Assembly: GCA_009885085.1 (NCBI GenBank)
Contig: VFLK01000033.1
Location: 7,135-71,134, forward strand
From: Minisyncoccota bacterium
Lineage (GTDB): Bacteria; Patescibacteriota; Microgenomatia; UBA1400; PJMF01
DNA: 64,000 bases
Reading direction: 5' to 3'
A program made the position numbers and the translations under genes. The notes under the pieces are model-generated. The model did not search any database, was not told the origin of the DNA, and saw only the letters and a program-made list of their open reading frames with translations. This document shows positions 10,815-55,347 of the stretch, piece by piece (the first letter of the stretch is position 1; the number at the start of each line of letters is the position of its first letter).

Positions 10815-11082
10815 AATGTGCGTAAGTATACCTCAAGGATAGAACTTTAACCACTAAAAATATACAGAAATTCGCACAATGATCCTACTTGCTGGACATT
10901 AGTAACTGTGATAATTTAATGAAGCTGTGGAATGTAGTGAAAATCTACAACTGTGCCGCAACGGTGTATTTTGATATTTTTCAAAATAAGTCCGATCTTC
11001 AGCAAATATTTTATTGACGAGCATCAAAATTGTGATTATTTATTTAGCCTTTGTACTAATAAAATAAACACCCGAAAAAATG

Positions 11083-11108: not shown

Positions 11109-11195
11109 CTTCAGTAATCTAGCGGCACAGAATTTCCAGAAGCAAAAGCAATTGAACAGATTGCCTGTAAAAATATATTCTTGGAAAGGAATAGT

Positions 11196-11915
11196 ATGCT
11201 AGAAAAAACTGAATCACTCGATATGTATCACCAGTTTAATGGAGAAAATCCGCTAGGATCTTTCAAAATTGAAGATGTTCTTCAAATAACTGGATTAAAT
11301 ACTTTTCTTGATGAAATGAATGCTTTATTTAAAGAATCAAGTCCTTTTCTCAATCAAGTGTCCCTTTTGTTTACTCACTATAGAAGACAGCTTGCATCCT
11401 TGCGTATTGAGATGCTAAATAATTTAGCCGCAAAACAATTACTTCAAGATTTTGGAGTAGCGGGCATTGGAATAGATGATAAGGGAAATGCTGACTCTCT
11501 GATCACTCAACAAATATTATCAGTCCATGGTAAATTAGTTGTTAATTTAGAAACAACTTCCATAGAACTTCCAAGTTCTGTGGCTAAATTCACCACGTTC
11601 ATTGTCGCTGTTCAAAAAGAAATAATTCGGATTTTAGTAGATTCACAAAAATCTATTTCTGCTGAAATAGAAGCAAAAGAAACTGAAGAAACAAAAGTAG
11701 ATAATCATCTATCTAGTCATACAAATACACACCATCGTTTGGCATCTGAATCGATCCAAGTTTCAAGACAAGCTCAAGAAAAAAGAAAAAAAGCAACACA
11801 TATTGAAAAAGAAAGTGCACACAATCAATTAAAAACTTTATTTTCTTATCTAAAAAACATCTTTAATCCAGTTGCTATGGGAACTCGAGAATTCATGTCA
11901 ATGACTGCGCAATAG
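11196..11915 (+). CDS. hypothetical protein
   Basis: ORF 11181..11915; the second ATG at 11196 has a GGAAAGGA Shine-Dalgarno-like sequence; no family recognised. Confidence 0.45.
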   Translation: MLEKTESLDMYHQFNGENPLGSFKIEDVLQITGLNTFLDEMNALFKESSPFLNQVSLLFTHYRRQLASLRIEMLNNLAAKQLLQDFGVAGIGIDDKGNADSLITQQILSVHGKLVVNLETTSIELPSSVAKFTTFIVAVQKEIIRILVDSQKSISAEIEAKETEETKVDNHLSSHTNTHHRLASESIQVSRQAQEKRKKATHIEKESAHNQLKTLFSYLKNIFNPVAMGTREFMSMTAQ

Positions 11916-29517: not shown

Positions 29518-31893
29518 ATGATATTAAATGATGCTAGAAATGTTGACCATCAATGGAATAGAAATTCAACAAAACAAGAAATTCTTGCTTCTGAAAAAGA
29601 TGATGCAGATATTATTGGCAATATATTGGAATTTACAGCAGATACAAAAATATTTTTAGCACACCTACGATATTCAAACGAAGAAGTTCTAAAAAAAATT
29701 GGCATCAAAACAAAAGACCAAATAGATGCTTGGACATCCTTCGTATATTCATCTATAGAATTATTTCACGGCCTAGCTACAAAAGGAAAAGGTGAATGGG
29801 GTATGACTTGGGGTTTAACAGCAAAAGATCCCAAAGATATTGAAAAGCTTCAAAATAAAGTCATAAACAGTATTGTTTATGAAACACTCAGAGATGTACA
29901 GCCTGGAAAAGAAAAACCAGCTATAAAATATGAGTACAAAACTAATAAAGATGGTAGCTTAAAGTCGGTTGAACCACTAGCTGACTCAAGACGTGACCCC
30001 ATTACCTTTCGCGTACTCAGAGGTGGGCCACCCCCACTAGATTTTATAGATATAAACATATCGATGAGTACAATTATTTCCTCAAATGCAAATACTGATA
30101 ACAAAGATATTAATCCGTTGGACATAATTCCCTGGAAAGGAATTATGGATGGCAACGAAAAAATACTTGAAATGCTTAAAACAATAACCGGTATCAAAAT
30201 TGGACCACCAAGATATCTTAAGGACTGGCATGAAGAGCCAGACGACGATGAAAATCATAAAACTGACAGAACAGGAGAATTTTTCAAACCTGATGTTTTG
30301 ATTGGCAAAGGTGATAAAAATTGGCGACTAACAAAATTTGGCAATGACGCAAGAATCATGATGTTGGCTGAGTATGGTGATAAGTTTGGAAGATCTGCTG
30401 CTATTAATGTTTCATTTGCTCAGCATGCCTCTGGAGATGGATTGGAGTTAATGGGCAGCGAATCAGCAAAAAAAGAAGACATGAAATCTGCCTATGACCA
30501 GACTCTTAAAAAACCAGAAATAAGAGAACTTTTAGACGAAAATGGCAAAGCAGAATCAGTCGAGGCACTTGAGTTAATTGGAGAATTTGAACCTCAAGTA
30601 TTGCCTTTCCATACACTCTTGTCTGCTAAATTTGGTCGGTTTGGGTTGGGTGACATGAGACAACAAATTGAGAGAAGAATTGCGGCAACCCAGTTTCAAA
30701 GTAAAGTCATGGCAAAATTTGGAGCAAGAGTTGATGCTATAAGAATACAAGTTGGAATTAAGTTAGACCCTGAGTTGACGGAGGCTTCCAGAAAAACAGT
30801 CAAACAAATCAAGGGAAAAGGTGTTGAAAAAATGAATGGATCTCTTTTAAATGCTATGGCACATCATCTGCATGCGGGCGAATCATGCGGCGTAATGATA
30901 CAACCAATAGAAGGTAGAACAACTCTCGTAACTGTGGGCAATAAGGTTTGGGAAAAATGGGAAAATGTCTGTGATAAATTTTCAAATGATGATCAAATAG
31001 ATAGGTTAAGAGCCTATCCAAGTATGAAAAATGGCATAAAAGTTATTAGGGATAGATTAAAAAACCTTCAATGGCTTCCAGATAGCAACGAACTTGATGA
31101 CTCAGAAACAAGCATGTGGCTAAATGAAAATATTCCAATAATAAAAAATATATTTTCTTTTGACAATGAACTTAGAAATCAGATTGAGCCGATCAGAAAT
31201 TCTGTAACAAACAGTGTAAATGAAATAACTGATGTTGATTCATTTTTAAAGAAAGTAAGAAATAAAAGCGGCGGTGTAGTCACAAATAAAAATGCCGAGT
31301 GGGACCTGAGTAGCATGACAAACAAAATGAACTTAATTATTACAAAAGCAAAAATGAATCCTAATACTCCTTTTTCAAAACTTATAATCCAAATTGATGA
31401 GACATTTAAAAATAGCAGTCAAAATGAATATCAAACAGAAGAATTTAGTAATAAAATTAAATCTCTAAACATCGCTGGAAAATTTTATCCGCTTAGAACT
31501 TTTTCACTAAATGTAAACCATGATCCAACAAGATCAAAAATAAATACAATTTTTCTTGCATGTGACCAACAAAAACTAGATGGTTTTGACTGGATACTTT
31601 CGGACACCGAACACAATGAAGAAGGATTTATCAAATCATTTGAAGCTGAGTTTGAAGACACTGCTAGTAGTATGGGAAACGTAGGTGATTTCTTTATTGA
31701 AGCTGGCAAAGACCCAAACCTAACTGCTCCTGCAATAAGTAGAGATTTGGGATTTCTAGCAGTCGTAGAAGGATGGGCAGTAAATCACACACCTAACACT
31801 GCTGCTGCAGCAAGGTCACAAATTTTTCGATCAGGGTTGCTTGAACCAGCAGACTCTGTTGGAACCGCCGTAGTCTTTCAAACAGCAACCTAA
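29518..31893 (+). CDS. large hypothetical protein (791 aa), first gene of the tRNA-Gly-adjacent operon; no TM, no P-loop, no recognisable domain
   Basis: long uninterrupted ORF; HHLHAGESCG His/Cys cluster; ends at a single TAA that is in frame with the next ORF. Confidence 0.6.
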   Translation: MILNDARNVDHQWNRNSTKQEILASEKDDADIIGNILEFTADTKIFLAHLRYSNEEVLKKIGIKTKDQIDAWTSFVYSSIELFHGLATKGKGEWGMTWGLTAKDPKDIEKLQNKVINSIVYETLRDVQPGKEKPAIKYEYKTNKDGSLKSVEPLADSRRDPITFRVLRGGPPPLDFIDINISMSTIISSNANTDNKDINPLDIIPWKGIMDGNEKILEMLKTITGIKIGPPRYLKDWHEEPDDDENHKTDRTGEFFKPDVLIGKGDKNWRLTKFGNDARIMMLAEYGDKFGRSAAINVSFAQHASGDGLELMGSESAKKEDMKSAYDQTLKKPEIRELLDENGKAESVEALELIGEFEPQVLPFHTLLSAKFGRFGLGDMRQQIERRIAATQFQSKVMAKFGARVDAIRIQVGIKLDPELTEASRKTVKQIKGKGVEKMNGSLLNAMAHHLHAGESCGVMIQPIEGRTTLVTVGNKVWEKWENVCDKFSNDDQIDRLRAYPSMKNGIKVIRDRLKNLQWLPDSNELDDSETSMWLNENIPIIKNIFSFDNELRNQIEPIRNSVTNSVNEITDVDSFLKKVRNKSGGVVTNKNAEWDLSSMTNKMNLIITKAKMNPNTPFSKLIIQIDETFKNSSQNEYQTEEFSNKIKSLNIAGKFYPLRTFSLNVNHDPTRSKINTIFLACDQQKLDGFDWILSDTEHNEEGFIKSFEAEFEDTASSMGNVGDFFIEAGKDPNLTAPAISRDLGFLAVVEGWAVNHTPNTAAAARSQIFRSGLLEPADSVGTAVVFQTAT

Positions 31894-31899
31894 GCTGGA

Positions 31900-32613
31900 G
31901 TGCCAGGACTTGGTGCAATGGGAAACAGCATGGCCATCGCTGACACCAGAGAAACATCTGGACTCAAGGAATCACTTGATCATCCTGCAAAAATGATGGA
32001 TGTATTATTGCCATGGTTGAGAGGAAATGAAAATGTAAAAACTGCTTTTAAAAATTTTCTTGGAGTAAACTTAGACATAGGTAACGAAAAAACAAAAGAA
32101 GAAAAGAATAATCGCAAAAAATTATCACTCTTTCAAAAAATGCTTTCTGAAGATGATTTTGCCTGTTTTAACGACAATAACTCAGAAAAAATTGTTAGAA
32201 GAAATGATTTAAGAATCTGGGGACCAAAAAGAGATGAAGAAAAAAGATTAACAGCTAGTGATTTAAGCGTCAGATATAAACATCATCTAGAGGGAGAACT
32301 TTTATTTGATATGTGGAATCAATTTATAGATGCAGTTGATCAAAATAAAGTAAAAATTGATGATAGAACAAAAGAATCTATCAAAAAATTTAACGGAACG
32401 GGTTTTAAAGAAATGTGGGGAGCAATGATAAAGTTTAGAGCTTTAGACATGCAACATCAAACCGCAAAAGCAAATCTGATCATGAGACTGTGGTTAAATC
32501 CCCATGATCACGATGAGTCTTCGTGGGAAATTTATGTAAGACAATTTAACACTGCAAGAGAATCCTATCGAAACATGGAAAAGGTATTTTCAGTTTTTGG
32601 GAAAGAATACTAA
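31900..32613 (+). CDS. hypothetical protein (237 aa), in the same frame as the upstream ORF and separated from it by one TAA plus two codons; possible C-terminal extension or split gene
   Basis: GTG 31900 (or ATG 31918) start; no convincing spaced SD; frame identity with 29518..31893 computed from coordinates. Confidence 0.5.
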   Translation: MPGLGAMGNSMAIADTRETSGLKESLDHPAKMMDVLLPWLRGNENVKTAFKNFLGVNLDIGNEKTKEEKNNRKKLSLFQKMLSEDDFACFNDNNSEKIVRRNDLRIWGPKRDEEKRLTASDLSVRYKHHLEGELLFDMWNQFIDAVDQNKVKIDDRTKESIKKFNGTGFKEMWGAMIKFRALDMQHQTAKANLIMRLWLNPHDHDESSWEIYVRQFNTARESYRNMEKVFSVFGKEY

Positions 32614-32615
32614 TC

Positions 32616-34739
32616 ATGATTTACGAACCTGATGGCTCATTATCTAACCTAACACTTCCAAGAGATGAAGTGTTAATTGCAATCTATGAAAAACAGAATG
32701 AAGCTTTATTCCTAATTCTTGGAGCTGACAAACCACCAATATTCACTAAAGAATTTGCCGCCAAAGAGTTAGCAATTCAACCACAAGAAACTCCAGGATT
32801 ACTAAAAAGAATTTGGTTTGAAAAGGATGAAAAAAATAAGACGTATAAATTGTGCGGTGTAGGGAAGTGGGGAGGTCAAAATTCAAAACTTGCAGAAATA
32901 TCTATAAATCTTGATATGGAAGAAGCAAATCGACTAATGAGTCTAGCTTCTAATAATAGAATTGAAGAGATAAACTCCTTATCAAATAATTCTGAATTAG
33001 CAAAAACCCCAAAAATTGAAAATTACAGAAAAATGCTAGAAGAAGCTGAAAAAATATTTTTTGCAATGCTAACAGATTATTCTGGAAAAATTGTAGTTGA
33101 TGAAACTGAAAGTGAAAAAAGTAAAAAAAGCTCTGAAGTAAAAAAGGATACGGCGCCTTTAGACACAATTGATGTTCAAATCATGCCAACTGAGAAAACT
33201 GATAAAAAAGATCTACTAAACAAATTAGCTGAAACTATGGAGCTTCGGGTGTTATTTTTAAATAGAAATAACAACGAAATTTCTTACGCTGATATATCCG
33301 AAGTTATAAAATTATTAGTAAATCCAGAAAATGTTGAAAAATATTTTAATAATTTAGGAATTGGCTCAGATGTCATTAGTGAAAAGGAACATTTTGAAAA
33401 TGAACTAAAAAAAATGACGAATGAGTATGCCAGCGGAAAAGTTAAAAACTTGCAAACAATTTTGGAAACAAGAAAACAAAATCAGCTCCAAACAATTTCG
33501 CAGATGATTAATACAATTGTTGAACAAATACCAATGCTTGCTAAAAGTCCAAAAACTTTTGACATTATAAAAAATGCTATGGATCTTGATAATGACTTAG
33601 CCGAGCAACTTGTCAAAGAATATAACGAAACTTCCACAATATCATTTGAAACTGTTTTCGATAATCTCGAAGGTGCAACTGAGTTATTTGAAGCAAAAGT
33701 ATTAGAAATAATTCTAGCAGATTATGAGGATCAAATTAATTCGCTAAAAATTGAATTTAATAAAATAATAGCTTCGCAGACAATCTCAAGGTGTATTGAG
33801 TGGGCCCAACCTCCTTTTTCTACTCCAGTTGATTCAAATATTCAACTCAACGTAGATCCTACTTTATTAGATCAAGCAATTAAATTTTCGTTTAGTCCAG
33901 AAAAGTGGGATATTAATTTAGTTACTTATGCACTAAATAACACTAGACATTCAGATGGCGAAATTGGAAGTAAAATACCAGGCAATAATATTTCAGGACT
34001 ACGAAAAACTAGAGAGAAATTAGATGACTATTTAAAACAGATGGTTGAAAAAAGTAATACGGAAAGTTTTGGTGCTCAATTTAAAGCCTGGATGAAAAAA
34101 TACAGCGATGGAAATATTAACCCAGATTATTACTTATTAAGTTTTACCTCGGTTTTAAAAACACCTTGGAAAAAACTTGAAGAAGAAATCTGGAAAAAAA
34201 CAATGGCCGAGTGGTTAAAATCAAATAAAGAAAAACTAAAAGCCATTGTTACTAACGAACTTAGTAAAAAAGGTGGCGCAATAGATGAAATCAAAAGTCA
34301 TGATAAAGCGATAGCAAAATCAACTGAAATATGGTTTAAATGGCGTCATGAATTGAAAAAAATATTACAAGAAAAATCACTAAATGCTCAAACGGATGTT
34401 GATATTCTAGTTGACTGGTCGCTAAAACAACAATACCCTGACGATAGAATGAAAACAAAAACAAATGAAGTTGCAATTGATTGGGATAAGGACAAAGAAC
34501 TGATAGAAAAACTTAAAGTTGATCATCTAAGAATTTGGAATATAATTTTTCACACCAGAAATATTGCCAAAAGTCTCAACTTAGGTATAGACACAAATGT
34601 TGTTCAATGGCTAAAAAGAATTTCTTTTCAAGCAAAAATGAGCAATCATTATGGATCAGATACTTTTCTCACAAGCGAAGGTGTGGAGTGGAGAGAAAAT
34701 ATTGAGGCCAAAGCCAAAGAAACAACTTCACAAAAATGA
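32616..34739 (+). CDS. large hypothetical protein (707 aa), K/E-rich and probably mostly alpha-helical, no TM or P-loop
   Basis: starts 2 nt after the upstream stop; stop overlaps the next start (ATGA). Confidence 0.6.
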   Translation: MIYEPDGSLSNLTLPRDEVLIAIYEKQNEALFLILGADKPPIFTKEFAAKELAIQPQETPGLLKRIWFEKDEKNKTYKLCGVGKWGGQNSKLAEISINLDMEEANRLMSLASNNRIEEINSLSNNSELAKTPKIENYRKMLEEAEKIFFAMLTDYSGKIVVDETESEKSKKSSEVKKDTAPLDTIDVQIMPTEKTDKKDLLNKLAETMELRVLFLNRNNNEISYADISEVIKLLVNPENVEKYFNNLGIGSDVISEKEHFENELKKMTNEYASGKVKNLQTILETRKQNQLQTISQMINTIVEQIPMLAKSPKTFDIIKNAMDLDNDLAEQLVKEYNETSTISFETVFDNLEGATELFEAKVLEIILADYEDQINSLKIEFNKIIASQTISRCIEWAQPPFSTPVDSNIQLNVDPTLLDQAIKFSFSPEKWDINLVTYALNNTRHSDGEIGSKIPGNNISGLRKTREKLDDYLKQMVEKSNTESFGAQFKAWMKKYSDGNINPDYYLLSFTSVLKTPWKKLEEEIWKKTMAEWLKSNKEKLKAIVTNELSKKGGAIDEIKSHDKAIAKSTEIWFKWRHELKKILQEKSLNAQTDVDILVDWSLKQQYPDDRMKTKTNEVAIDWDKDKELIEKLKVDHLRIWNIIFHTRNIAKSLNLGIDTNVVQWLKRISFQAKMSNHYGSDTFLTSEGVEWRENIEAKAKETTSQK

Positions 34740-37207
34740 TAAGTCGAGAAACAAGCAAACCACAATCCCGCAACGATTTTCTATCGATTCCTGGTCTTGA
34801 TGAAAGAGCACAAGCAACAATTTTTGCCAAAGAAATAGAATTATTGCCTCCAAGAATGCGAAATTATATTGCTATTTTGATGCGAGAAAATAGCAGAGCT
34901 GGCATATTTAAAAAAAGACAATCTGAAGAAAATCTTACAGCACTACTTGAGCCAGCTAGAGAACTGATTAGTTTGTTACATATAACTGAAAATATGCCAG
35001 AGGTTGTGGAAAACCTCCATATCAGGTGGGCAAAAATTATTGAAACTCAACCATATAATGAAAAAACAAGACGAAGAGATATAAGAGAAATATGGTTAGA
35101 TATAATTGAAAAAGGTGTTAAAACCGCGCAAACAACATTTATCTGCAGAGAAATTAGAGACCGAATGATCTCCAGAAGCTATCTCGATAAACCCAGTCAG
35201 GCAATTTCCAAATTTGATACAGAAATACTAAATAAATTAGCTGCCTGGTGCTATGAAGCCCAAGGAGATAAATATAAAGTTGAAAATGGTTACCAGCTAT
35301 TTAAAGAAGATTTGGGAAAAATACTAGAAATTTCACAAGATACTGGCATATCGGCAGAAAATTATTTTAATCACAGAGACAAATCCATAATGCCATGGTT
35401 TTTTATGCTGTTGGTTGGTGATAATTCTGAATTTAGTAAATTCATGTATGAAAAAATAGGCAATAAAGAATCAATGAGACCACACATAAACCTTGGAGTG
35501 ACAGGTATTGATATAGCATTAGGCGAGAATGGACTTGAAGAAAGACCAGACGATCTTTACAAACGTCTTGCTGATCTTTTATATCCTGACGGCTATCCAG
35601 AAGGAATTAAAGGAAAAATTAAAAATTCAGAACAAAGAAGTATTTTTATTGAGAAAGGCAGCGAACTTAAGTGTAAAGTAGCAGACCCAGGTTCAGACTC
35701 ATATGAAAGAGCTTATATCAAAAAGGAAATTGAAATCCTAAAAACTGATTTCCAAGATGATGGCATAGAAATGCACGACAATTTTGGCTATGAAAAACCA
35801 GCTCTTTTTATGTCCTTAGATATTAATTTAATGTCTGATCTCATGGGAATAACTGGTAGCTGGACCAAGTGGCTTGAAGCAATGGCCCATATTAGAGAAC
35901 AAGAAACAACTTGCAACATACCAATTTCTCCAGATGAAGCATTAACTTTGATGAACTGGGATTTAGAGTCTGATTTAAAAAATAAAATCCTCACAAAAGC
36001 AATGCTGATTGCTCATTTCAATAGAGCTGCTGGCTTAGAACAACATCACGGCTATGGAGGAAATAAAAATATTTATAATGATCAATTTTGGGCTAGACTA
36101 GCTTACAATTTATCATTGCCAGAAAATAAAGATGGAGCTCACACTTTGACTCCAGAAATATTAGCTAAAATTTCAGAATCTTCTCAGGACGAAGAAGAAA
36201 TGGCGCAAAAACTTGGATTCTTACTCTCTGGCAGAGTTACTACAATTAATCTCAGTGTGATGGGTGCAAATAGAACTGGAAAAGATGAACAAGCAAGTAC
36301 GATGGAAAGTTCTTCGTATGCAGTCACAGAATCTTGCAGAGCTTATGGCCTTTATGAGCAAGGAAAAGATCCTAAGCCAACAGTTGCTTCTGGACATTCC
36401 ATGGGTGCTCAAATTTTAGAAAGAGCTTTGTTACTTTTGCCTCAAAGTGTAAGAAATTGGGTTGACTTTCTTTCCGTAACTGGAGTCTATACAAGTGAAA
36501 TGAGTGCAATGTCTTTTCTTAAAAAAGGAATGAATAAACTTCACCCATTATTAATTAAACTTGTAACAAATAAGAACATTACTAAACAACAGTTGGGGAA
36601 ATTTATGTCAGGCGCTGGAGAAATCTTACCAATTAAAAAAATAATACTAAAAGGCGCCACCTATTCTCAAGCCAGAACACCAATGGATTTCAAGATTGGA
36701 TTACCAATTGCAGCGGCGCATGAAATAAGTTTGAATTCAGCTCCAGAATATTTATTAGGACAAATGGGAGCAATTGATAACAGCAAAGATAGACATTCAT
36801 TTGATGAACTTGCGTCAACAATATCTACATTTGGTAAAGACATGGTAACAAGAACGGTTGGACGAATTGATTCTGTCCTACATCCTGGAAAATCAATGAG
36901 GGCTCTAAAAAATTCAGACAAAAATATTAGAATAAAAGATTTTGATAAAATGACTATTCCTGAAATGGTTAAGTGGGTAAATGAGACTGAAGTGAATACT
37001 GGTGAACCAATTGAAGTTATCCTGGCTAAAGTTCCACACTACATACAAACGACTGAACTAGGTAGATGGTTGATTAGATTGCAACACATGAAAAAACTAA
37101 AATTACATACTTATGGATATAGAAAAAAAGGTGAAAATTCAGAAGCAACTCAAAATATCAGCAATACAACAAGATCAATTACCGAATTATTTATGGGGAG
37201 AAATTAA
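34736..37207 (+). CDS. large hypothetical protein (823 aa) with a GHSMG (GxSxG nucleophile-elbow-like) motif; candidate serine hydrolase or acyltransferase domain
   Basis: ATGA overlap with the upstream gene; GHSMG encoded at 36392..36406 in frame. Confidence 0.55.
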   Translation: MISRETSKPQSRNDFLSIPGLDERAQATIFAKEIELLPPRMRNYIAILMRENSRAGIFKKRQSEENLTALLEPARELISLLHITENMPEVVENLHIRWAKIIETQPYNEKTRRRDIREIWLDIIEKGVKTAQTTFICREIRDRMISRSYLDKPSQAISKFDTEILNKLAAWCYEAQGDKYKVENGYQLFKEDLGKILEISQDTGISAENYFNHRDKSIMPWFFMLLVGDNSEFSKFMYEKIGNKESMRPHINLGVTGIDIALGENGLEERPDDLYKRLADLLYPDGYPEGIKGKIKNSEQRSIFIEKGSELKCKVADPGSDSYERAYIKKEIEILKTDFQDDGIEMHDNFGYEKPALFMSLDINLMSDLMGITGSWTKWLEAMAHIREQETTCNIPISPDEALTLMNWDLESDLKNKILTKAMLIAHFNRAAGLEQHHGYGGNKNIYNDQFWARLAYNLSLPENKDGAHTLTPEILAKISESSQDEEEMAQKLGFLLSGRVTTINLSVMGANRTGKDEQASTMESSSYAVTESCRAYGLYEQGKDPKPTVASGHSMGAQILERALLLLPQSVRNWVDFLSVTGVYTSEMSAMSFLKKGMNKLHPLLIKLVTNKNITKQQLGKFMSGAGEILPIKKIILKGATYSQARTPMDFKIGLPIAAAHEISLNSAPEYLLGQMGAIDNSKDRHSFDELASTISTFGKDMVTRTVGRIDSVLHPGKSMRALKNSDKNIRIKDFDKMTIPEMVKWVNETEVNTGEPIEVILAKVPHYIQTTELGRWLIRLQHMKKLKLHTYGYRKKGENSEATQNISNTTRSITELFMGRN

Positions 37208-50456: not shown

Positions 50457-50578
50457 CTATTGTTTGGAGTAAGGCAACTTGTGCTCTAAGATAGCTTCTT
50501 CAACTTGTACCCCCAGGCACCTTCTCTTGCTTTGAAATGGCCAAGGCCTGATGCTCTTGCTTTACAACTCGCCATGTT

Positions 50579-54140: not shown

Positions 54141-54395
54141 TTGGTTTATAATATAGGAATGAAATATCCCATACCAAAGACTTTATATAAATACTTTTGG
54201 GGCGACAATTTAGATGAACTTTGCTGGCAAGACCATCAAAAATACATTACTCAGACACTGTTAGAAAAAGGAGATAGAGAAGCAACTAGTTGGCTTTTGA
54301 GCATGTCTGATAAATCCCAATTATTAAAGCAACTTCCAGAATTAAAGCTAAGTATTAAATCAAAAAACTTCTGGCAGATATATTTATCAGCATGA
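54141..54395 (+). CDS. small hypothetical protein, 4-nt overlap with the downstream nucleotidyltransferase (candidate antitoxin partner)
   Basis: 84-aa ORF; operon arrangement only. Confidence 0.3.
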   Translation: MVYNIGMKYPIPKTLYKYFWGDNLDELCWQDHQKYITQTLLEKGDREATSWLLSMSDKSQLLKQLPELKLSIKSKNFWQIYLSA

Positions 54396-55021
54396 AAATA
54401 TACGCCCAAACTTTACCCATTAGAACCAAATGCATAGTTGAAATTTTTCAGAAAGAAAAACCCGATTTTTTAAATGACTTTTATTTGTCTGGCGGAACAG
54501 CATTAGCTTTACAACTAGGTCACAGAGAATCAGAAGATTTAGATTTTTTTAGTAAAGATTTCTTTAATCCTAGTAGATTACAACTTAAGCTTGAAAAATA
54601 TGGAAAACTAAATGACTTGGAGTTATCAGAAGGGACTTTAAATACTTATTTAAACGGAGCAAAACTTCAATTTTTAGAATATCCCTATGCATTGGTTAAA
54701 AATCATTTTGATTGGCAAGGAATAAAACTAAGCTCAATAGAAGATATTGCCTGTACCAAACTGCATACTATCAGCATGAGAGGAAGTAAAAAAGATTTTG
54801 TTGACTTGTTCTTTATTTTACAAAGTTTTTCATTAGATGATCTTTTTAAAATGTTGAAAAGAAAATATGTAATCTCTGATTTTAGTCAAACTCATATTTT
54901 GAAATCACTAGTTTACTTTGAAGACGCAAATTCTCAACCAATGCCTAGAATGCACAAACTAGTAAGTTGGGATGAAATTAAAGAGACAATCATCAAAAAA
55001 GTTAAAGACTTGGTGCTTTAG
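54392..55021 (+). CDS. AbiEii-like nucleotidyltransferase (type IV TA toxin family)
   Basis: LSGGTALALQLGHRESEDLDFF resembles the GGTAL...R.SEDLDF N-terminal motif of AbiEii/DUF1814 proteins. Confidence 0.5.
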   Translation: MKIYAQTLPIRTKCIVEIFQKEKPDFLNDFYLSGGTALALQLGHRESEDLDFFSKDFFNPSRLQLKLEKYGKLNDLELSEGTLNTYLNGAKLQFLEYPYALVKNHFDWQGIKLSSIEDIACTKLHTISMRGSKKDFVDLFFILQSFSLDDLFKMLKRKYVISDFSQTHILKSLVYFEDANSQPMPRMHKLVSWDEIKETIIKKVKDLVL

Positions 55022-55030
55022 CAAAAAAAA

Positions 55031-55056
55031 GAACCCCTGAGGGTTCCTTTTTTATA
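55031..55056 (+). terminator. intrinsic terminator gaaccc-ctga-gggttc followed by TTTTTTAT
   Basis: read directly downstream of 54392..55021. Confidence 0.6.
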
Positions 55057-55060
55057 TTTT

Positions 55061-55078
55061 GCGAGCTCGATCGGACTC
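55061..55078. repeat. 18-nt exact direct copy of the 3' end (acceptor and T-arm) of tRNA-Asp; att-like
   Basis: gcgagctcgatcggactc identical to 55274..55291. Confidence 0.75.
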
Positions 55079-55094
55079 ACGATTCGCTACTATT

Positions 55095-55272
55095 TTTATC
55101 TACTGAAGGAAGCTCACAAGGTGAATTGCGAAGCAAGAGAAGGTGCCCTGGGGTACATGCACTAGGGTGACTCGCGCAGTGCGCTCGTGCGCCCGTCGCG
55201 AACAAGGCCACGACCACAATGTGAACTCAATATAAATAAAATAAACGCCTATCAGGCGTTTATTTTATTTAT
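55095..55272 (+). ncRNA. candidate small structured RNA or element remnant: GC-rich 190-bp segment between the tRNA-Asp partial copy and tRNA-Asp, ending in a bidirectional terminator
   Basis: G+C much higher than genome by eye; 5' part shares a roughly 45-nt motif with 7577..7621; terminator aaacgcct-atc-aggcgttt flanked by A and T runs at 55245..55272. Confidence 0.3.
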
Positions 55273-55274
55273 AG

Positions 55275-55347
55275 CGAGCTCGATCGGACTCGAACCGACG
55301 ATCTTCTCCGTGACAGGGAGACATGTTAACCACTACACCACGAGCCC
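55275..55347 (-). tRNA. tRNA-Asp (anticodon GTC), no encoded CCA
   Basis: manual cloverleaf on the reverse complement: acceptor gggctcg/cgagctc (one G-U), anticodon stem tctcc/ggaga, loop ctGTCac, T-arm gtcgg-ttcgagt-ccgat. Confidence 0.8.

Follow-up and report, generated by a model that had tools for sequence, protein, structure and literature searches.

The 3′ ends (tails) of tRNA genes are classic landing sites of mobile DNA and, to our knowledge, all tRNA-tail insertions that are understood rely on a tRNA-specific integrase encoded by the element itself. Long target duplications of fixed length are produced by casposons and in CRISPR spacer integration, both of the Cas1 type; family-2 casposons use the 3′ ends of tRNA genes, and arrays grow at one end. 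In IS200/605 elements, the omega-RNA of TnpB has as its guide the DNA flanking the element end, and both the homing of type V-K transposons and the retention of IS200/605 elements by TnpB serve as models for directed targeting. Delocalized CRISPR RNAs (crRNAs) of type V-K and I-F CRISPR-associated transposons carry a spacer matching a tRNA gene (PMC11656645). In mycobacteriophage Ms6, the core of the phage attachment site (attP) lies in the T-loop of tRNA-Ala, and this 26-bp core spans the whole T-arm (PMC1762012). Partial tRNA copies and degenerate elements beside tRNA genes are described for the tycheposons, or tRNA-seeded islands, of Prochlorococcus (bioRxiv 10.1101/2020.12.28.424599). Here, a stretch of 64 000 nucleotides (the window) from contig VFLK01000033.1 of a Minisyncoccota bacterium (Patescibacteria) was analysed. 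Downstream of its tRNA-Asp(GTC) gene, a short GC-rich segment leads to a second copy of the gene's tail, and this segment is one member of a family of structured cassettes without genes that stand at tRNA-gene tails in Patescibacteria and have not been catalogued. No description of such cassettes was found in a full-text literature search; its coverage was incomplete and an earlier description is possible.

There are two exact occurrences of the 18-mer GCGAGCTCGATCGGACTC in the window, one at 55061-55078 and the other at 55274-55291. They form a direct repeat with an interval of 195 bp (55079-55273). No third copy was found in the window at up to two mismatches, and 100 dinucleotide-preserving shuffles gave 0. 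The tRNA-Asp(GTC) gene occupies 55274-55347 of the minus strand, so that the second copy corresponds to its part from G57 of the T-loop to C74; it covers the 3′ half of the T-loop, the 3′ strand of the T-stem, the 3′ strand of the acceptor, G73 and C74. CCA is not encoded (...GAGCUCGC, followed by UAUAAA). The unit 3′ of the gene (55061-55273) measures 213 bp. The features of the locus, in the direction of the tRNA, were as follows.

55274..55347, minus strand: tRNA-Asp(GTC) gene, intact (ARAGORN; Rfam tRNA, 64.2 bits)
55274..55291, minus strand: proximal repeat copy, tRNA positions G57-C74 (exact 18-mer and tRNA alignment)
55231..55273, no strand: palindromic hairpin, 19-bp perfect, with A-tract and T-tract arms, bidirectional terminator-like (fold and sequence)
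55206..55230, minus strand: variable leader UUGAGUUCACAUUGUGGUCGUGGCCUU between hairpin and core (alignments)
55079..55205, minus strand: core, named M1, in tRNA-sense orientation (covariance-model match at 55078-55205, 72.7 bits, E 6e-15; motif coordinates)
55117..55154, minus strand: 38-nt insertion within M1, present in no other M1 copy (alignment)
55061..55078, minus strand: distal repeat copy (the tail), an 18-nt copy of tRNA-Asp G57-C74 (exact 18-mer)
55025..55056, no strand: second hairpin terminator, past the distal copy (terminator scan, 55031-55056, and fold)

An earlier reading made from the letters of the window alone (the sequence-only reading) had reported that the last 18 nt of the tRNA recur at 55061..55078, that the intervening segment is GC-rich and that it carries a strong bidirectional terminator. 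The match proved exact, G+C rose to 0.54-0.60 at 55100-55249 (100-nt windows) from about 0.25-0.35 on either side, and the terminator corresponds to the perfect palindrome of 19-20 bp at 55231-55273. The alternative that the 18-mer is a dispersed repeat is ruled out, since it is tRNA-derived and occurs exactly twice in the window. An Arg-rich stretch resembling an open reading frame (ORF) had also been announced; the 46-codon minus-strand ORF of the 195-bp segment is not Arg-rich, and a reading frame common to the M1 members is unlikely, judging from their length differences.

The palindromic hairpin stands directly 3′ of tRNA-Asp and counts as part of the cassette. A simple terminator scan missed it because its T-run lies inside the stem. 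M1 then reads, in order, GUUCGCGAC, the P2 hairpin (55194..55165), UAGUGCAUGU, the window-specific insertion, UGAGCUUCC and ...AAAAUAGUAGCGAAUCGU. The distal copy abuts the end of M1 (...AAUCGU). Beyond it comes a native-looking flank (GC followed by AAAA); in the window and in the related loci L002 and L012 (collected loci are numbered with the prefix L), what comes after the distal copy is like native tRNA-Asp flanks (GC followed by AAR). The outer flank of the cassette is marked by the terminator at 55025-55056, which also ends the convergent AbiEii gene (54392-55021). The GAGUUC of the leader could pair with GAGCUC in the distal copy. An acceptor-like helix between leader and tail was discarded as a general feature, being strong in the window and L099 and not across the family. 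Pairing of the leader with the GUGCAUGUGAGC motif (mean z -0.86) is suggestive only.

The LemA gene next to tRNA-Asp was used to retrieve 80 syntenic loci from GTDB representative genomes, in most of which tRNA-Asp lies upstream of LemA. Four of them (L002, L008, L012 and L030) contained clear homologues of the GC-rich segment, with M1 adjoining tRNA-Asp each time; L002 holds three copies within 3.5 kb. A covariance model was built from 17 distinct copies and detected M1 in 5/81 LemA-type loci. A pattern scan of metagenome contigs yielded 16 M1 loci. In 16/16 of these, M1 followed a palindromic hairpin and stood directly 3′ of a tRNA gene or decayed tRNA end that shares its strand, and most continued with a copy of the 3′ end of the same tRNA. 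M1 was thus found at eight tRNA species: Asp, Gln(CTG), Gln(TTG), Cys, Ser(GGA), Ser(TGA), Gly(GCC) and Arg(TCG), the copy at tRNA-Arg(TCG) being truncated. In the tRNA direction, the blocks of the family are GUUCGCG(A/C)C, a variable hairpin, UAGUGCAUGYGAGC, an optional small hairpin and AAAUAGYAGCGA(A/G)UCGU. This core of roughly 60 nt is nearly invariant, whereas the hairpins and leaders (25-45 nt, variable) are wholly different between copies in one genome.

Two other cores occupied the same position. M2, which is unrelated to M1 and ends in ...GCCUGACGAGGGU, stands behind tRNA-Ser(TGA), Ser(CGA) and Gly(GCC) and has the form CUUGUGCCCGAUCAAGCGAAYUC...UUUGAGCCUGACGAGGGU. Each of its three copies is followed by the cognate 17-nt tRNA tail. 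The 5′ end of M2 (GAGGGAU, GGGGAU, GGGGC) is complementary to the start of the tail and covaries with the identity of the tRNA in 3/3. M2 gave no Rfam match. M3 starts with GUUCGCGCC and ends with ...CCCGUAGGGU, followed at the junction by GAUCCCGAU and then by a tail copy with a 4-nt deletion. Their locations were:

L084 1940-2038, minus strand: M2 copy
L084 3940-4027, plus strand: M2 copy
L098 13632-13716, plus strand: M2 copy
L041 3620-3745, minus strand: M3 (CP011212.1, labelled TM6), after tRNA-Asp and hairpin

Taken together, M1 and M2 cassettes were found at nine tRNA species, and one contig of 1.19 Mb bears cassettes with either core at nine tRNA genes. Different cores are also arranged in tandem behind one tRNA, for example as tRNA-hairpin-M2-tail-hairpin-M1-tail.

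The junction between core and tail was highly regular. M1 nearly always ends in ...AGCGAAUCGU(R) and is followed by a copy of the adjoining tRNA from position 57/58 to 74; whatever the tRNA type, the tail measures 17-18 nt (57 or 58 to C74). Among the loci collected, 15/126 distinct tRNA genes have a copy of their tail of at least 14 nt downstream. For 12 M1 or M2 cassettes, tail and cognate tRNA agree over 14 nt or more, and there every M1 reads ...CGU(R) followed by A58 and every M2 ...GGGU(A) followed by A58. The rule for M1 rests on the copies with an exact tail; decayed and partial copies do not test it. M1, M2 and M3 are three unrelated cores with one junction register. Tails follow the differences between species in the tRNA itself: at tRNA-Gln(CTG), those of L086, L094 and L099 each match their own gene, and the same is seen for tRNA-Asp in the window, L002 and L008. 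The 4-5 nt preceding the identity block (..UCGU(R)) do not resemble the 5′ half of the T-loop.

The P2 hairpin is kept in subtypes whose sequences there are wholly different. On the model-based alignment, 84% of its cells were paired and 21 cells were changed on both sides, with base pair counts including AU:10/GC:8 and CG:8/GC:6. Its covariation score was reached by 0/500 shuffles, and sliding the partners by 1-3 columns abolished the signal. The conserved blocks outside P2 hardly vary, so pairings there give no covariation signal. M1 is accordingly a structured nucleic acid, which may act as RNA or as single-stranded DNA. Folding energy showed no strand preference (-366 vs -365 kcal/mol summed over the 17 copies). 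The evidence on the strand conflicts: tandem G.A motifs (GAGC...GCGA), seen by eye in the alignments, recur in M1 and favour the sense strand, whereas a conserved A.C mismatch in P2 on the tRNA-sense strand becomes a G.U pair on the other one. Searching Rfam 15 with 55040-55245 (206 nt) gave no match even at E<=10, tmRNA, ribozymes and T-box included, so the segment is not a known housekeeping RNA. In the window and five related loci, only tRNAs and sub-threshold noise were found in the cassette regions, at the gathering threshold and at E<=10.

Comparison of the locus across relatives, which the sequence-only reading had put forward as a check, was informative. Besides the 5/81 distribution given above, M1 is lacking in the nearest relative, L001 (95% LemA identity), and in L111, an ENA contig. 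L111 has the order DUF6922-AbiEii-tRNA-Asp-LemA-HtpX-GatC, at 70-75% amino-acid identity to the window. AbiEii and tRNA-Asp are separated there by nothing but an AT-rich spacer of 78 nt; hairpin, M1 and duplicate are all missing. Because L111 has the same flanking genes without the whole cassette, the cassette is, by this comparison, an insertion/deletion polymorphism of which L111 represents the empty site. Presence and absence between relatives sharing both flanks is as in a mobile insertion. The hairpin accompanies every M1-bearing tRNA and is absent from most M1-free tRNA-Asp genes (75 related loci). The sporadic distribution, the L002 copies, the tandem arrays, the association with the hairpin and L111 point to insertion.

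We give a probability of roughly 0.45 to the explanation that the unit is a miniature non-autonomous cassette, which inserts at the 3′ ends of tRNA genes in Patescibacteria and is moved in trans by an enzyme encoded elsewhere. This is close to one option of the sequence-only reading, a tiny non-autonomous element or small RNA at an attachment site. In the tRNA direction, the cassette consists of a long palindromic hairpin flanked by A/T, a leader of 25-45 nt, a structured core and the 17-18-nt tRNA tail up to C74. It would be non-autonomous because it has no gene. It would arrive by insertion at the tRNA tail, either through a staggered cut at 57/58 and 74/75 whose fill-in gives a 17-18-bp duplication, or through recombination with a cassette bringing its own copy of the tail. 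Both routes would leave the tRNA intact and provide it with a terminator, and would move the original tail away together with its native flank. As the end of the element, M1 would fold as RNA or single-stranded DNA and be recognised by the enzyme. Selection on M1 would leave the core nearly invariant while hairpin and leader diverge; the core would be held by selection, and so, apparently, would the tail. The single junction register (57/58, 74/75) of three unrelated cores suggests that common machinery sets it and reads the T-loop, a feature common to all tRNA genes. The duplication is constant at 17-18 nt and may be an imported copy instead of a target-site duplication. The imperfect tails of L012 and L098, which are set against the explanation and differ from the tRNA by adjacent double substitutions, lean towards an imported tail; the pan-tRNA range leans towards target duplication.

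Several other observations weigh against a mobile cassette. No integrase, transposase, TnpB or Cas gene was found by Pfam searches of the window ORFs and of the L002 and L097 islands, and all-against-all clustering of 415 ORFs of loci with cassettes gave no recurrent partner family near cassettes beyond synteny. No inverted repeats were found at the cassette ends (AUAAA... vs ...AAUCGU). No free or circular form was seen, nor any copy in viral, phage or plasmid collections: pattern scans of IMG/VR gave chance matches only and no viral M1 copy, and blastn against phage and plasmid collections returned no M1 copy. We know of no transposase with a 17-18-bp target duplication. The copies are old, since the hairpins and leaders in one genome share no sequence, and the evidence for movement consists of presence and absence.

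A possible but doubtful alternative is a module resembling a guide RNA, in which M1 is the scaffold and the 17-18-nt tail the guide directing an enzyme encoded elsewhere to tRNA-gene tails. The target lies directly 3′ of the conserved T-loop motif GGTTCR, which could act like a protospacer-adjacent or transposon-adjacent motif (PAM/TAM), and guiding could coexist with mobility. The conserved scaffold is indeed followed by a variable 3′ segment of fixed length, identical to the adjacent DNA target beside GGTTCR; this agreement is weak, GGTTCR being found in nearly all tRNAs. Tails that track the tRNA between species, and that are perfect although leaders and hairpins have wholly diverged, would fit a guide, as would the tandem G.A motifs, and tRNA-directed delocalized crRNAs provide a precedent (PMC11656645). 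On the other side, Pfam and ORF clustering revealed no effector gene for a guide RNA in the window or next to any of the copies. The tRNA gene restored at each cassette would itself be a perfect target. Three unrelated scaffolds in the same junction register suggest that the insertion mechanism, and not the scaffold, sets this register. Neither strand is favoured thermodynamically and the transcript is putative. If M1, M2 or M3 together with the tail were a natural programmable RNA guiding an enzyme encoded elsewhere to the DNA directly 3′ of the T-loop motif in a chosen tRNA gene, the cassette would copy itself and acquire the tail of its new target, that is, insertion would be RNA-guided or RNA-catalysed without a recognisable CRISPR, TnpB or integrase component; we regard this, too, as rather unlikely.

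It is improbable that the unit is a host small RNA gene linked to tRNA genes, with a repeat that is functional and not a scar. Such an RNA could be an anti-tRNA transcribed from the opposite strand, its 5′ end complementary to the last 17-18 nt of the tRNA and its 3′ end at the bidirectional terminator, or a sense RNA with a tRNA-like tail. The hairpin with its A- and T-tracts always stands where an opposite-strand transcript would terminate, and the G.U pair that replaces the A.C mismatch of P2 is on that strand as well. A strongly conserved core with a covarying helix and the maintenance of the tails also agree with a functional RNA. The distribution does not: the unit occurs in some close relatives and not in others, one site with both flanks intact is empty, and multiple tandem copies as well as decayed ones occur. 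No consistent promoter was found on either strand by scanning and by eye, such scans being uninformative in AT-rich DNA, and the strand evidence conflicts as described above.

Still less probable is the classical remnant, a tyrosine-integrase island in tRNA-Asp of which deletion has left attL, attR and some arm DNA. A direct repeat of the tail next to an intact tRNA is a hallmark of islands (PMC4383910, PMC1762012 and the tycheposon report), the interval from tRNA-Thr to tRNA-Asp varies among relatives, and larger insertions with decayed tRNA ends are found at the same tRNAs (L097, L002, L008). The sequence-only reading had invoked integrase-mediated insertion into the tRNA 3′ end, followed by deletion. 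Only the geometry of the duplication, a direct repeat of a tRNA segment, agrees with the first of these events. No integrase or fragment of one was found by Pfam in the window and related islands; the cassettes are linked to many tRNAs instead of one; and the identity does not span a crossover region, as it starts at 57/58 and does not include the whole 7-nt T-loop, whereas the 26-bp core of Ms6 spans the whole T-arm (PMC1762012). Deletion is contradicted by the same structured core at eight tRNA species in several species, each time with its cognate tail, and a dead scar would not keep compensatory changes.

That the segment is a degenerate pseudogene of a tmRNA or tRNA type, or belongs to some other known RNA family, is very hard to credit: by eye the order of motifs resembles the 5′ 100 nt of Escherichia coli transfer-messenger RNA (tmRNA; GUUCGCGACGGG, GUGCAUG, AAAUAGUAGCGAA), and yet local alignment was no better than with shuffles (23 to 263 of 500 score as high), and no tmRNA, two-piece forms included, was detected by ARAGORN, by Rfam at E<=10 or through a conserved tag frame.

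Other elements were observed around the cassettes. A conserved element of 120 nt, designated X, begins with a diverged tRNA-Asp 3′ end (GCGAACTAGAGC) and stands in the place of the tRNA before hairpin-M1-tail units in L002 and L008. On the strand opposite to the tRNA it reads as a conserved peptide, ELERNWVEPLYxSLExIVEVMxNWFTPE..., with a stop codon and without a start codon. The peptide was considered as a trace of an integrase gene spanning attP and this was rejected, no homologue being found in a set of 5.8 billion proteins. Copies of X were located as follows.

L002 480-602: X
L002 2730-2852: X
L002 1525-1699: X, inverted
L008 3107-3248: X
L052 1906-2040: X
L052 2707-2804: X
L012 2193-2274: X

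At L097 4780-8930, tRNA-Ser(GGA) is followed by 3.9 kb of cargo coding for a protein with a cytidine-deaminase fold and four proteins without Pfam match. Past this cargo come a scrambled tRNA-Ser 3′ end (GGUUCUAACUUGGUACACACACCUCCGC), a hairpin, M1 and a decayed tail. It seems that a later insertion displaced this older cassette outwards.

Beyond the distal copy, at 52.7-55.0 kb, Pfam identified an MGMT DNA-binding domain, NUDIX, DUF6922 and AbiEii, in agreement with the MGMT fragment, Nudix and AbiEii-like genes named by the sequence-only reading. Searches for proteins identical to the LemA and AbiEii of the window returned no record. Their proposed role as decayed cargo was not borne out for the AbiE pair, which is an old neighbour of tRNA-Asp and not cargo of the 195-bp unit, because it lies outside the repeats and has the same order in the cassette-free L111. 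The DUF6922-AbiEii pair (window 54141-55021) is found next to tRNA-Asp in two orientations (L111, L116) and in an unrelated context, beside a malic enzyme gene (L113), and so is itself moving from site to site. Relatives differ in the distance between tRNA-Thr and tRNA-Asp, 1.2 to 4.6 kb, and in the window this interval is flanked by two inverted copies of a 27-nt motif, AAGCAAGAGAAGGTGCC(C)TGGGG(G)TACA, at 50506-50532 (minus strand) and 55131-55157 (plus strand), identical at 25/27 positions. The first copy, some 50 nt downstream of tRNA-Thr(CGT), is set in 100 nt of raised GC content, and the second lies within the window-specific insertion of M1. The motif did not occur in any other locus collected.

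Two further features of the window were recorded. Four consecutive large ORFs (791, 237, 707 and 823 aa) at 29518-37207 on the plus strand, about 800 bp downstream of tRNA-Gly(CCC), had no Pfam domain except a sub-threshold BrxC/D-like stretch, and could represent a defence or mobile module not yet characterised. An AdoCbl-II (cobalamin) riboswitch aptamer is present at 10911-11009 on the plus strand (41.7 bits, above the Rfam gathering threshold), upstream of the ORF at 11181-11915.

If the cassettes are mobile, some enzyme reads the T-loop common to all tRNA genes and preserves the tRNA, an activity of which no description was found. If they are guide or regulatory RNAs, they would represent a new class linked with tRNA genes; the non-coding RNAs of this phylum have so far been little explored. 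In practice, software that searches for islands will take the cassettes for decayed prophage attachment sites, and counts of 'partial tRNAs' in these genomes will come out too high.

The cassette can finally be placed beside the known systems. Gene-less units of about 200 bp, multi-copy, hairpin-containing and presumably moved in trans are known among cis-mobilizable elements (CIMEs), miniature inverted-repeat transposable elements (MITEs) and palindrome-associated elements. Unlike these elements, the cassette has no inverted terminal repeats, is strictly linked to tRNA tails and has only the core in common between copies. From what is generally known of casposons, it departs from them in lacking terminal inverted repeats and cas1 and in being a non-coding insert. 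Like delocalized crRNAs and the omega-RNA of TnpB, it presents a scaffold followed by a short segment identical to a site near a tRNA gene. Unlike them, it has no cas12k, tnsB, tniQ or tnpB nearby; compared with the delocalized crRNAs, it is directly joined to the tRNA instead of standing tens of bp further downstream, its scaffolds have no Rfam match and its RNA is putative. With the tycheposons it shares a streamlined genome in which tRNA genes seed variable regions, and the tRNA-Thr to tRNA-Asp interval of the window fits this pattern. The tycheposons carry tRNA-specific tyrosine recombinases and cargo genes, and the available part of their description mentions no structured non-coding core with a cognate tail. 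Islands and prophages with a tyrosine integrase resemble it most closely in geometry: an intact tRNA and a displaced copy of its 3′ end bound the insert, the junction is in the T-loop, and serial insertions give tandem arrays. The cassette differs from them in having no integrase, in an insert of about 195 bp without a gene, in a family spread over eight or more tRNA species where integrases are tRNA-specific, and in an identity fixed at 17-18 nt from the middle of the T-loop, as against the 26-bp core of Ms6 (PMC1762012).

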